Notes under the pieces: model-generated
What the model was told of the DNA's origin: nothing
What the model saw: the letters and a program-made list of their open reading frames with translations, nothing else
Databases searched by the model: none
Assembly (NCBI GenBank): GCA_951406725.2
Contig: OX597824.1
Location: forward strand, 69,874,001-69,938,000
Length of the DNA: 64,000 nt
Reading direction: 5' to 3'
Source: Octopus vulgaris
Taxonomy: Eukaryota
Shown: in pieces, positions 1 to 40,600 of the stretch
Numbering within the stretch: position 1 is the stretch's first letter
How the letters are laid out: the number at the start of each line of letters is the position of its first letter
Made by a program: the position numbers and the translations under genes

Positions 1-160
1 AATGCATTTACAATTCAGATCATTGCAGCATATTACAATAACGGAAGCGAAATGAAACGAAACAGAAACAGAAAAAAAGAATTAATTTATAATACAAGCA
101 TACTATTTATAGTACCGCAAAAAAGAAAACTGGAAGTTTATGGATTAGTCAAAGTAATGT

Positions 161-230
161 CCTCATCTTGATAGTTGCTTTCACTACGTTTCGGATGTGT
201 TCGCTCCAGACTGCTTCAGGTGTCTTGTAA
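161..230 (-). ncRNA. Degenerate minimal hammerhead-ribozyme motif in a PLE terminal-type repeat
   Basis: Minus strand reads gacac-CUGAAGC-A-gucug..aucc-GAAA-CG-UA-GUGA. It is homologous to the copies at 3071-3120 and 21916-21961, but the core and stem II are mutated. Confidence 0.5.
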
Positions 231-289
231 TTCATGTTAGTGTGTTGCCTCGATGTGTGTCGTCATGATAGATCGGTAGCCACCACACA

Positions 290-1274: not shown

Positions 1275-3044
1275 CTCTGGCTTATATCCGAACACATTTT
1301 AACTGAAAGTAGGATCAAATCTTAAAATGCTTCTTGACGTACCTTTACGCTTAAAGATATTGCGTAGTCCTTTTATATTATGGTGAGAAGTACTATTAAA
1401 ACAGGTTTCATCTGAAGACAATGAAAATACACATTAACTTATATGGGATACCAACGTATTCAAAACTGTAATAGGCAGATTAGAGTTCATTATATATTGT
1501 AATTTTTCATTAGGGTTTTCCATAAAGGTAAAACTTATTAGTATCAAGGTTTATAGCGACATCCGATATTCTGACTACACTAAGGCTTCTATGTATCAAC
1601 CACCATTCTTAAATCTAATTCTTTGGATGTCTCTATAAGATCTTTTCTGAATATGTATAAAATGTCACCGTTCATACAACACAAGTCTATTAAACTATTG
1701 TACTTGATTCCAATATTATCTCGTCCTCAGATGATAAACACCATTTATCTTCCATTCAAATAATAGTGCTTCTGTAACTAAATGGTTTCAGCGGCATCAA
1801 CGATGGAAAACATTAAGAATTCACGCAATTCCATGTAATAGAATTTCTTTATAAAGCTTTAGCTTTCGCAAATAATCCTATCTACTTCATAAAAACCTTA
1901 GTTTTCGCTTATAATTATATCTCAATTAGTGAATCTGATATCGGAATTATGCACGCGTGGAAGTCCCTGCCACTCTTTGATAACTCATTTTGAGTTAAAA
2001 ACAACAGTGAGGGAGAGGCATGATATCCCCATGGTGTTTTATAAAGAGGCTCGCATTCAGGAAATTATTGGAATATATATGTGTGTCTGTGTGAGAGAGA
2101 GAGAGTGTGTGTATGTGTGTGTGTATGTGTGTGAGTGTGTGTGTGTGCGTGTGTGTGTGTGTGTGTGTGTGGAGGCGCAATGGCCCAGTGTATGTAGATA
2201 TATACGTATGTATATATATATATACGTATGTATGTATATATATATATACGTATGTATGTATGTATATATATATATATATATTTATATATGTATATATATA
2301 TAGAGAGAGAGAGAGAAAGAGAGAGAGAAATAGTGAGAGCGAGAGTGAGTGAGAGAGAGAGAAAGAGAGAGAGAGGTACACATATATTTATATGTGTGTG
2401 TATATGTATATATATACATATGTATATATGTGTGTATATGTATGTCTATGTAATGTATATGTATGTACATATACGTATATAAATATCCATATATATATAT
2501 ATATTACAATTATATAGTAATATATATATATATATATACACACACATATATATATATAATATATATATATATATATACACACTTGTATGTGACGTGTGTG
2601 TGTCTGTGTGTCTGTATGTGTGTGCACGCGCGTATCTGCATCTGTGTGTGTGTGTACACTCAAAATCGTTAAGCATACAAGAACCTCACAATGGAGAAAA
2701 TCTTAATTTGGCTAATTGAAGCTTTCAATGCTTAAGTGTGCTCAACATCTAAATAACAATTTGTTAGGGGTTATGACCAACACCTAAATGGTTAAACGGA
2801 ATGCATGATTGCCAAATATCTTCACACATCGACTATGTGCATTTATTTTCCTCACACCTGGATGTGTATTCGCCGACATCAAGAGGTAGTTGCGAACAAT
2901 GGCTTCCACAGCCGAGCGGTATACTGGTTACTAGGGTTACTAGGGATTTAATATAAAGGGAAGGAAGCGAATATATTTTAGACAAGAAAAATACACTTCT
3001 ATATTTCTGTTATGAAGACTACATAATATGCATTAGTCGGGATG

Positions 3045-3120
3045 GTGATGTTCTCATCTTCATTGTCGCTTTCACTACGTTTCGGCCTTTGAGCGCTCCA
3101 GCCTTCTTCAGGTCTCTTAT
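3045..3120 (-). ncRNA. Minimal hammerhead motif, left arm of an inverted pair
   Basis: Minus strand: gagac-CUGAAGA-A-GGCU-loop-GGCC-GAAA-CG-UA-GUGA. Core is canonical, stem I is weakened. The inverted partner lies at about 3205-3241 plus 3644-3670. Confidence 0.65.
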
Positions 3121-3241
3121 GATCCACTTTACTGCCATGCCTGAGATTGGACTCGGAACCTTTTTGCGAGTTCACTACATTTCAGCGCCTTTATCCACTA
3201 CGCTACATAAAGAAAACAAGAGCGTACACAGCAGAAACATA

Positions 3242-18278: not shown

Positions 18279-18512
18279 ATGAAGGTGGCGAGCTGGCAGA
18301 AACGTTAGCACGCCGGGCGAAATGCGTAGCCGTATTTCGTCTACCGCTGCGTTCTGAGTTCAAATTCCGCCGAGGTCGACTTTGCCTTTCATCCTTTCAG
18401 GGTCGATTAAATAAGTACCAGTTACACACTGGGGTCAATATAATCGACTTAATCCGTTTGTCTGTCCTTGTTTATCCTCTCTGTGTTTAGTCCCTTGTGG
18501 GTAGTAAAGAAA
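18279..18512 (+). mobile_element. SINE family C (Meta/MESC-like core) with 15-bp TSD
   Basis: TGGCAGAAACGTT and GAGTTCAAATTCC boxes; core GCCTTTCATCCTTTCAGGGTCGA..AGTACCAG. TAGGTACTGCTTGAA at 18264-18278 and 18513-18527. Confidence 0.9.
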
Positions 18513-20994: not shown

Positions 20995-21180
20995 GATCCT
21001 TTCTACAACATGCATATGTCTTGAAATTTTGGTGGGAGGGGCCTAATCGATTACATCAACACCTGTGCTCAACGGGTACTTATTTCATTGACCTCGATAT
21101 GATGAAAGTCGGCTTCGTGGGTAATTTAAACTTAGAACCTAAAGACGGAAGAAATGCCTCTTAGCATTCTGCCAGTTCGC
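20995..21180 (-). mobile_element. Degenerate SINE family C
   Basis: Diverged reverse complement of 21247-21462. Confidence 0.6.
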
Positions 21181-21246: not shown

Positions 21247-21462
21247 AAGGCGGCGAGCTTGCTCAATCGTTAGCACTCTGGATGAAATGCTTCGCGGCAT
21301 TTCGCCCGTCGCTACATTCTTAGTTCAAATTTCGCCGAGGTCGAATTTGCCTTTCATCCTTTCGGGGTCGATAAAATAAGTACTAGTTGAGCACTGGGGT
21401 CGATGTAATCGACTAGTCCCCTCCCCCAAAATTGCTGCCCTTGTGGCAAAATTTGAAACCAG
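21247..21462 (+). mobile_element. SINE family C in (TTA)n
   Basis: Head aaggcggcgagct.., core gcctttcatcctttcggggtcgataaaataagtac, followed by a TTA tail. Confidence 0.88.
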
Positions 21463-21716
21463 TATTATTATTATTATTAAGGCGGCGAGCTGACAGAACC
21501 GTTAGCACGCCGGGCGAAATGGCTAGCGGCATTTCATCTGTTTTTATGTTCTGAGTTCAAATTCCGCTGAGGTCAACTTTGCCATTCACCTTTTTGGGGT
21601 CGATAAATTAATTACCAGTTAAACACTGGAGTCGATACAGCTCTATATTTAAGAGATGAAGAATTATGTACAATATTTACATTTGACGGATATTTGTTCT
21701 CATCTTGTTTGTTGTT

Positions 21717-21762
21717 AACACAACGTTTCGGCTGATATACCCTCCAGCCTTCATCAGATGTC
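21717..21762 (-). ncRNA. Minimal type-I hammerhead ribozyme
   Basis: GACAU-CUGAUGA-A-GGCUG-gaggguauau-CAGCC-GAAA-CG-UU-GUGUU; complete core, 5-bp stem II, 5-bp stem I including G-U pairs. Confidence 0.8.
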
Positions 21763-21811
21763 TTGGGGAAATTTCGAACCTGAGTTCCCATTCCTAAGGT
21801 ATTTTTCGATG

Positions 21812-21851
<40 letters not shown>

Positions 21852-21915
21852 TATTATTATCATAACACCTAAAAATTACCTTAGGAATGAGAACCCTGCT
21901 TCGAAATTTCCCCAA

Positions 21916-21961
21916 GACACCTGATGAAGGCTGGAGGGTATATCAGCCGAAACGTTGTGTT
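21916..21961 (+). ncRNA. Minimal type-I hammerhead ribozyme
   Basis: GACAC-CUGAUGA(21921-27)-A-GGCUG-loop-CAGCC-GAAA(21949-52)-CG-UU-GUGUU; loopless palindromic ACGU helix III; predicted cleavage after GUU (21956). Confidence 0.82.
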
Positions 21962-22096
21962 AACAACAAACAAGATGAGGACAAATATCCGTCAAATGTA
22001 AATAATATAAATAATGTACTGGAGTCGATGTAACTGACTTAGCCTGTCCTCCGAAATTGCTGGCCCTATGCAAAAAGTTTGAAATTATTATTATCA

Positions 22097-31349: not shown

Positions 31350-31731
31350 AATAATCCTTTCTACTATAAGGACAAGGCCTGAAATTTGATGGGGGGAGCC
31401 GGTCAATTAGATAGACCCCAGTACGCAACTGGTATTTAATTTATCGACCCCGAAAGGATGGAAGGCAAAGTCGACCTCGGTGGTATTTGAACTCAGAACG
31501 TAGCGGGAGGCGAAATACCTATTTCTTTACTACCCACAAGGAGCTAAACATAGAGAGGACAAACAAGGACAGACAAACGGATTAAGCCGATTATATCGAC
31601 CTTAGTGTGTAACTGGTACTTAATATATCGACCCCGAAAGGATGAAAGGCAAAGTCGACCTCGGTGGTATTTGAACTCGGAACGTAGCGACATTTCGTCT
31701 GGCGCGCAAACGATTCTGCCACCCCACCGCC

Positions 31732-36959: not shown

Positions 36960-37799
36960 GCAGAGTAGAATGAACGTAGCATTATTTGGCGAATGGGTAA
37001 GATAGAAAGCTGGAGGAGAGGAAACAAGATGCAGTTGAGAGTGGGTCGTGTGAGAGGAGAGAAAGAATGGTGGTGCGACCAATTTCTCGAGAATAGTTTA
37101 GGAGGCTTTGGACATGGGTGGTGAGGAGTTCACGACAATTGAAGAGACGGGTCACGTATTTAGGGTGCGTTGCAAAATCTTGGTTGCGGCTACACGGACG
37201 GCGAAGACGGAGGAAGTGGGAGTAACGGATGGTGTATATGGGGTGGGAGAGGTGGGAGGAGGAAAATTGAGGTAGAAATGAGAGTCGGTAGATATAAAGA
37301 AGGCAGAAATGGTAACAATGATTGAGATTGGCGGTGAGCTGGCAGAGGCGGCGAGCTGGCAGAGGCGGCGAGCTGGCAGAGGCGGCGAGCTGGCAGAATC
37401 GTTAGCAGACCGGGCGAAATGCTTAGCGGTATTTCGTCTGCGTTACGTTGTGAGTTCAAATTCCGCCGAGGTCGACTTTGCATTTCATCCTTTCGGGGTC
37501 GATAAATTAAGCAACAGTTACGCATTGGGATCGATGTAAACGACTTAATACCTACGTCTGTCCTTGTTTGTCCCCTCTGTGTTTAGCCCCTTGTGGGTAA
37601 TAAAGAAATAGGTAACAATGATTGAGATGGTTAAGAGAAATAGAGCTAACTTTAAAGTTAACAGGGTTATCAGTGATGACAAAAGCAAATTCAAAAGAAG
37701 GGTGAAAAAAGAAAACAAAAGAGATGAAGTTATTCAGTTGCTCATGGGAGAGGAAGCTTGTGCGATACAATTATCTATGTAACAACCGCATAGCTCTGG
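36960..37799 (-). pseudogene. Penelope-like element reverse transcriptase relic, interrupted by a SINE
   Basis: In order on the minus strand: PELCGCYIDNCI (YIDD-like), LSHEQLNNFISFVFFFHPSFEF, STDSHFYLNF and IRYSHFLRLRRPCSRNQDF. These match the PLE RT and thumb motifs RYIDD, FHPALKFT, PTDSHSYL and YSQFLRLRRICS. Confidence 0.8.
37329..37610 (+). mobile_element. SINE family C with quadruplicated 17-bp head and 18-bp TSD
   Basis: GGCGGCGAGCTGGCAGA x4 at 37330-37397; GGTAACAATGATTGAGAT at 37311-37328 and 37611-37628. Confidence 0.9.
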
Positions 37800-40391: not shown

Positions 40392-40600
40392 AAGGTGAGG
40401 AGCTGGCAGAATTGTTAAGCTCGCCGGGTAAAATGCTCAGCGGCATTTCGTCCGTCTTCACGTTCAAATTCCGCCGAGAACGACTTTACCTTGCATCCCT
40501 TTTCGGGGTCGATTAAATAAGTACCAGTTGAGCACCGGGGTCAATACAGTCGACTTACCGCCTCCTCGATATTGCAGGCCTTGTGCCAAAATTTGAAACT
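40392..40600 (+). mobile_element. SINE family C, diverged
   Basis: gagctggcagaattgttaag..ttcggggtcgattaaataagtaccag. Confidence 0.8.

Follow-up and report, generated by a model that had tools for sequence, protein, structure and literature searches.

Several features that bear on the present locus are already in print for Penelope-like elements (PLEs). Insertions with an inverted pLTR, an optional tail and a 9-10-bp target-site duplication (TSD) are described in the available text of PMC3846280 and PMC8557442, and the tail itself in PMC3846280 and PMC11167929. Dual minimal hammerheads lying 100-700 bp apart on opposite strands have also been reported (Cervera and De la Pena 2014, PMC4209133). 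Related minimal motifs are said in these accounts to cleave weakly and solely as dimers or with protein (PMC4209133, PMC11167929). For the Anolis Poseidon element, in vitro experiments found both strands of the target nicked and extended, with reverse transcription starting at two internal sites, one on either side of the tail (PMC11167929).

Here we describe a 381-bp insert that carries two such hammerhead motifs in a 64,000-nt stretch of Octopus vulgaris DNA (the window). The insert is a known product of a known class and ordinary for that class. It is very probably a single decaying PLE insertion composed of two 5'-truncated pLTRs placed head to head, which likely arose by nicking and priming of both target strands from an RNA that likely started at a tRNA-Arg-derived promoter.

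The insert, its site and its two motifs

The insert interrupts a host SINE, and its parts are as follows.

21479-21636, + strand: 5' part of the interrupted host SINE; 78-82% to the window's other copies, continuous with the 3' part once the insert is taken out
21625-21636, + strand: TSD, left copy; exact 12-mer, repeated at the right end
21637-21812, - strand: left arm, a 5'-truncated pLTR (arm positions 1-176) with the distal ('tailed') 3' end; departs from the column majority at 7 private positions
21637-21662, - strand: 26-nt Penelope 'tail', on the left arm only; within the ORF 5' end in full-length copies
21717-21762, - strand: minimal type-I hammerhead motif of the left arm (sequence motif); predicted cut between 21722 and 21721
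21813-21864, no strand: spacer of microsatellite sequence, which on the other strand is the (AAT)n tract of the left pLTR; a full pLTR is head + (AAT)n + arm
21865-22017, + strand: right arm, a 5'-truncated pLTR (arm positions 1 to ~150) with the proximal (tail-less) 3' end; 7 private differences, 0 in common with the left arm
21916-21961, + strand: minimal type-I hammerhead motif of the right arm (sequence motif); predicted cut after 21956 (GUU triplet)
22018-22029, + strand: TSD, right copy; exact repeat of the left 12-mer
22030-22085, + strand: host SINE, 3' part; 76% to the sister copy at 21393-21458

The first-pass annotation of this DNA had described a SINE split by an element with a 12-bp TSD, and this was borne out. 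The exact 12-mer stands at both ends, and when the 381 bp (21637-22017) are removed the host SINE is rejoined, gapless across the site against the sister copy that starts at 21247. The 12-mer match stops at 12 with no extension to 13, and its first A may equally be the last base of the arm, giving a TSD of 11-12 bp. The two near-identical inverted arms of that annotation were also recovered: they are 93% complementary over 144 nt (21663-21806 and 21872-22015), and differ in the 26-nt extension (21637-21662) found on the left arm only. The junction of the two truncated pLTR copies sits in the spacer (21813-21864). Both arms lack the tRNA-like head described below, and with its head gone the insert would not be expected to make its own RNA. 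Its reading as a retrotransposition event with a TSD holds, and inverted pLTRs are typical.

Other copies of the host SINE lie at 18282-18439, 21247-21458, 31411-31686, 37380-37535 and 40392-40545 (73-83% to the split copy). Two host SINEs stand in tandem at 21247-22085 with (ATT)n before each, and a partial inverted copy at 21021-21117 (- strand) matches 21342-21431 at 80% over 90 nt, 224 nt from the neighbouring copy. The octopus SINEs OR1 and OR2 are called CORE-SINEs in the available text of PMC4824008 and PMC4758252.

The motif CUGAUGA-A-GGCUG...CAGCC-GAAA-CG has two matches in the 64 kb, at 21921-21954 (+) and 21757-21724 (-), and none in 100 shuffles. A generic minimal-hammerhead descriptor returned only these two in the window, one per strand, each with the 5-bp stem I noted earlier and a stem II of 6 bp. 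Their assignment to the Penelope type also stands, as both have the CUGANGA/GAAA/UH core, stems I and II, the extra base after A9 and the palindromic 15.2-16.2 of PLE-type minimal hammerheads. The Rfam search that had been suggested as a check gave no hammerhead match at the gathering score or at E<=10, its hits being microsatellite or hairpin noise. The word 'intact' that had been applied to them holds for the predicted hammerhead as a sequence motif only.

Since the two hammerheads lie on opposite strands, no transcript of the locus would hold two sense copies. A read-through transcript is predicted to form a ~140-bp hairpin (-218.5 kcal/mol, z -27), which would bury its single sense ribozyme. 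Cofolding of two copies of the motif RNA gave a mostly intermolecular fold that is uninformative on activity.

The parent element, its head and a sister family

Each arm is the 3' part of the pLTR of an autonomous EN+ retrotransposon of the Penelope/Poseidon type, a clade placement made by similarity and domain order. At locus L058 a 75-nt head, then (AAT)n and then the arm come after an endonuclease-like C-terminus, and at L092 the arm end is in frame with the ORF. When 30 loci were picked by the EN region, arm sequence came next in 28 and the head in 27, a set in which six loci on contig C31 are copies of one larger duplication. A further 30 picked by the ORF start have arm sequence directly before the ORF 5' end in most cases, and EN-head-arm-ORF tandems occur in L117, L120 and L125. 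Because head, (AAT)n and arm follow the EN end and the arm is in frame with the ORF, the three together are the pLTR of an EN+ PLE.

Read by column majority, the ORF opens at an ATG within the arm and, with YVDD at 524 and CSC at 714, extends for 817 codons. It is 56% identical to an 847-aa ENA protein, whose N-terminus matches the peptide encoded over the hammerhead, and 37% identical to an 836-aa Anolis protein that we take to be Poseidon_Ac (PAc) or close kin. Pfam placed RVT_1 in the element's protein (E 6e-8). The EN piece was not called by Pfam alone; in a feature-based atlas the nearest protein clusters to this C-terminal part are GIY-YIG (0.97). The element therefore has the layout of EN+ Penelope-like elements, namely a single ORF with RT then C-terminal GIY-YIG and a pLTR before and after it that carries its first codons. 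The earlier proposal of a non-coding, retrozyme-like element moved in trans is largely refuted by this result: the arms belong to the terminal repeat of an element with an ORF, and the insert can be explained with neither a separate non-coding element nor trans action. The predicted hammerhead lies inside the first codons of the ORF, as in Anolis Poseidon. A 40-base stretch over it has 1,165 exact genome matches (reversed control, 0) and is carried exactly by 11 of 171 arms not chosen for it, from which we estimate ~18,000 arms genome-wide, within about a factor of two.

The unusual feature of the family is a pLTR that begins with a tRNA-Arg-like head, likely its promoter. Compared with 27 distinct sequences from 30 tRNA loci of the same genome, the head matches tRNA-Arg best (z 8-9), and it contains A- and B-box words. 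ARAGORN called 0 tRNA genes in 17 loci and nothing on the majority head, lowered thresholds being noisy, and no Rfam tRNA model reaches the head. The head has 260 exact genome matches. Where 30 loci were picked by it, 24 begin within 7 nt of the head, one of them with ORF sequence just past a short repeat, and in the other 6 the sequence runs on into the 3' UTR. Of 147 arms, 74 reach the head, and 28 of these stop inside it; of the 46 that extend to its start, 35 go no further. Such a sharp boundary may mark either where transcription begins or where RT halts at a small hairpin present at that point.

The majority sense strand has 0 T4 runs over the 817 codons (2.9 expected by synonymous swaps, P 0.028), against 30 on the other strand; G runs are likewise absent from the sense strand (1.1 expected). 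The missing T4 runs give a hint, no more, of read-through by RNA polymerase III (Pol III). In three RNA-seq runs of a species in which the family is present, both strands were equally represented, with no pile-up of ends at the head. This is as expected of read-through transcription and does not speak for a discrete transcript. Reads aligned to the insert locus were dominated by other copies. The RNA reads also showed A>G/T>C differences, which were not taken as editing, since they are confounded by the diverged reference.

The short head + arm copies share with tRNA-derived SINEs a head with A and B boxes. Such SINEs have a head that is not common to the autonomous partner and a LINE tail, whereas here the head follows the EN end in 27/30 loci and the partner is a PLE. 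Since the head follows the ORF, an independent SINE with a tRNA-like head and a Penelope tail was set aside as the main explanation. We found no description of a tRNA-headed Penelope pLTR in the openly accessible literature searched.

A second, older family (family B; the family of the insert is family A) is represented in the window outside the insert.

3000-3215, - strand: family B copy, with tRNA-like head, hammerhead with GUA triplet and tail words

Further family B sequence lies at window ~100-260 (- strand) and at loci L254-L283. Family B keeps the A and B boxes, with a sequence between them that differs and is 10 nt longer. Its order is head, GUA hammerhead, tail and then ~40 nt of ORF start, after which the 3' UTR follows directly. 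There is no ORF within 1.5 kb in 30/30 loci; one locus (L274) holds a tandem and several have inverted partners. By its layout family B looks like a tRNA-headed, internally deleted, retrozyme-like derivative. Within family A, L109, L118 and L122 (~1500-1860 as oriented) have ~235-255 nt of ORF start and then the head again, a form that is likely a non-autonomous subfamily.

Two further observations concern the genomic setting of family A. In L046, L057, L054, L059, L056 and L106 a headless arm comes after the (AAT)n tail of another repeat, LINE-like by eye in some cases, which suggests insertion into, or joining at, AAT microsatellites. At L072, L075, L076, L083, L084 and L085 on contig C31, one PLE insertion is present in at least six near-identical copies with flanks in common, a pattern read as segmental or tandem amplification.

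The wider set of copies also bears on the hammerheads. All 11 core positions are kept in 80/171 unselected arms, so two complete motifs at one locus are unsurprising. Core positions in genomic copies mutate at the pace of their neighbours, CpG fastest, and within family A a raised non-CpG variant occurs at a single core-strand position, N7. In L003, L226 and L253 the same core mutation stands in both arms of the pair, which fits either cleavage that is dispensable for insertion or conversion. Between families A and B, 29/29 positions of the core, helix III, stem II and inner stem I are identical compared with 16/25 others among the 54 positions (Fisher p 0.0004), over a stretch that is also coding in family A. 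The families differ at N7, N17 and loop II. Selection on the predicted hammerhead is visible between families rather than between copies. The stems are identical in A and B with no compensatory pair change, and B no longer forms two outer pairs of stem I. Metagenome contigs yielded no relatives' DNA for stem covariation or for the head in other species. The three RNA-seq runs had no end pile-up at the cut site, and their library type would hardly show cleavage. We propose that the hammerheads are passengers in the pLTR and that their outward facing is a by-product.

These results divide the expectations of the first-pass annotation. Conservation of the core is found between the families and much less among copies, and stem covariation is not seen between A and B. 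Fold-back of the arms is a fair description of the predicted hairpin; its proposed use as a switch finds no backing, as the free loss of core positions among copies indicates no switch function. The same applies to the account of one sense ribozyme plus an antisense arm per transcript, in which the strand arrangement is right and the regulatory role is not indicated.

Head-to-head pairs and their formation

To place the insert among its relatives we surveyed 90 loci from among the 1,165 exact matches, taken in their order on contig C1 (matches 1-30, then 60 of the next 68, leaving out two pairs and the last four of the 68); all of these loci are hammerhead-selected. An inverted arm lies upstream in 54/90, or 50 after dropping 4 distant or fragmentary partners, and the head-to-head pair is the most frequent arrangement in this sample. 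Spans of the 50 pairs range from 174 to 1,132 bp, and the middles differ even at equal spans. In 47 of them one tailed arm (end ~170-176) is combined with one tail-less arm (end ~118-162); of the other three, one is long/long and two are short/short by BLAST. We found exact 9-15-bp TSDs in 22/50 pairs versus 1/300 mismatched-flank controls, while 28/50 have no exact TSD of at least 9 bp and 19/50 none of at least 7 bp. An inverted 5'-truncated copy with the tail at one end and a TSD is again what EN+ Penelope-like elements leave.

The junction of the 381-bp insert has no second copy among the 40 scored of 4,552 candidates, where the best other full-length matches reach 79-80% and have other middles. 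The comparison returned a two-arm layout that recurs with TSDs and arms that match pLTRs, and among the candidates scored did not return the exact unit. Each arm of the insert has 7 differences from the majority, none in common, near the family mean of ~4% outside CpG. This copy is old, idle and decaying.

Paired arms have 39 non-majority bases in common against 10.3 +/- 3.0 in 1,000 shuffles (92 pairs from all loci), and about 9/10 of the arm differences within pairs are private. The excess of common variants argues for one source lineage followed by separate decay. Gene conversion could add to, or account for, the common variants. Arm divergence within pairs showed no significant correlation (rho 0.17, p 0.10).

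We favor the following sequence of events. The element's enzyme would nick both target strands, the nicks being staggered by 9-15 nt. A cDNA would then be primed at each nick, the distal internal start site serving for one and the proximal for the other, with the tail between the two sites; both cDNAs would end early and be joined, at 21637-22017 within the (AAT)n tract. The family RNA would start at an internal promoter of tRNA-Arg origin, where the pLTR begins, and would probably be made by RNA polymerase III. We infer the two-priming step. The paired arms have fixed 3' ends, one at ~175 and the other at ~140-155, and both point outwards, one at each start site, an arrangement that fits two-site priming.

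The same pairs can be set against fold-back self-priming of one cDNA, which has been proposed for the Adineta Penelope from palindromes at the junction (PMC3846280, available text). This origin of the inverted pair would agree with the hairpin at the start of the head, where fold-back matches occur in 6/30 loci, and with the excess of variants common to both arms. It would also be compatible with 26/47 pairs in which the tailed arm is as long or longer, the insert at 21637-22017 among them. The comparison of 5' ends is less favorable to it: the tail-less arm reaches further 5' in 21 of the 47 pairs, the tailed arm in 14, and the two are alike in 12. In those 21 pairs each arm has sequence absent from the other, which simple fold-back cannot give; neither arm was therefore copied from the other's cDNA there, and we regard self-priming as an unlikely source of the inverted pairs. 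A yet less probable reading, to which we give very little credence, is that of the first-pass annotation, in which the 381 bp are a palindromic, ribozyme-defined non-coding unit whose fold-back serves as a switch or a source of dsRNA. The architecture does recur, thousands of times by estimate, and carries TSDs, and the transcript would fold to the ~140-bp hairpin given above. As an element that moves as a unit, however, it should repeat its junction, and the junction is unrepeated among the candidates scored, spans vary over 174-1,132 bp and middles vary. Moreover, the arms decay independently (7 + 7 private changes, 0 common), core positions mutate like their neighbours in copies, and the hairpin would presumably bury the tail that RT is thought to bind.

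A different question is which RNA was copied. The template may have been a short SINE-like Pol III RNA of a solo pLTR (head + (AAT)n + hammerhead + tail, ~270 nt), copied in trans by the Penelope enzyme, with the insert a truncated double copy. This departs from two-strand priming by a PLE in the source RNA only, and both can hold together. Short copies far outnumber ORF-bearing ones: 11/147 arms continue into the ORF and 35 stop at the head start. The sense arm is without a T4 run, and ragged 3' ends would be removed if priming took place internally, at the tail (PMC11167929, available text). Internally deleted units recur, in family A at L109, L118 and L122 and in family B with a short junction in 12/30 loci (lenient probe) and no ORF match within 1.5 kb in 30/30. 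On the other hand, the first pLTR of a full-length RNA together with internal priming would yield the same short copies, and both arms of the insert end short of the head, so that the locus at 21637-22017 cannot discriminate. We consider a SINE-like template a serious possibility that falls somewhat short of an even chance.

The pair statistics, that is, the two fixed 3' ends, the independent 5' truncation, the common source variants and the 9-15-bp TSDs, can be read as in vivo footprints that fit two-strand, two-site priming, and they argue against simple fold-back for many pairs. That priming is a step of the Penelope cycle left open by the in vitro study, as far as its available text goes (PMC11167929). 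A more far-reaching model, which we put forward as a speculation with rather low odds of being right, is that an autonomous PLE is transcribed by RNA polymerase III from a tRNA-derived promoter over its whole 2.7 kb. Its headed pLTRs, with RT priming internally at the tail, would be ready SINE-like donors, and family B would be a further-reduced tRNA-headed, retrozyme-like parasite of the same machinery. If true, the family would be a rare protein-coding retroelement under Pol III, and the retention of such a promoter by two diverged families would illustrate how parasites resembling SINEs and retrozymes can emerge from the Penelope enzyme class.

Comparison with described elements

In the available text of the respective reports, the closest layouts are those of Adineta Pen2a_Av (PMC3846280) and the PLEs of PMC8557442 Fig. 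2. These likewise have the first ORF codons in the pLTR, an adjacent inverted 5'-truncated pLTR, an optional tail at one end, a TSD of ~9-10 bp, and RT followed by a C-terminal GIY-YIG. The octopus pLTR differs in starting with a tRNA-Arg-like head, A/B boxes and (AAT)n, whereas that of Pen2a is described with a TATA/Inr promoter (PMC3846280), and in a tail of ~26 nt rather than the 30-40 nt of Pen2a-type PLEs. Poseidon_Ac of Anolis carolinensis shares with the octopus family the hammerhead over the ORF start and two 3' ends that bound a tail in the ORF 5' end (PMC11167929). The tRNA-like head of the octopus family is not mentioned for PAc in the available text of that paper. Cleavage by the PAc hammerhead has been shown, is protein-assisted and is dispensable for insertion in vitro (PMC11167929), while that by the octopus motif is predicted.

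The minimal hammerheads of metazoan PLEs (PMC4209133, available text) likewise have a short stem I, an extra base between 9 and 10.1, G10.1-C11.1, and a palindromic 15.2-16.2 with no helix III loop. Relative to them the octopus motifs have a stem II of 5-6 bp and a triplet that is GUU in family A and GUA in family B. Metazoan non-LTR retrozymes, as presented in bioRxiv 10.64898/2026.07.22.740005 (available text), are likewise short, non-coding, derived from PLE pLTRs and furnished with a type-I hammerhead. Retrozymes are same-strand tandem repeats, whereas the insert is an inverted pair of truncated ends. Its motifs lie on opposite strands, and there is no self-replicating non-coding unit, the arm being an ORF start and the junction unrepeated among the candidates scored. 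The short deleted unit of family B is nearer to retrozymes than the insert is.

For the head, the nearest parallel is with the TRIMp3 elements Cassandra, Helenus and Ajax (PMC10886601, available text), which likewise have a small-RNA-derived Pol III promoter in a terminal repeat, with the boxes kept and the tRNA fold lost. That report expects autonomous partners without the Pol III repeat. TRIMp3 are non-autonomous LTR elements, whereas the octopus head sits in the repeat of an ORF-bearing PLE.
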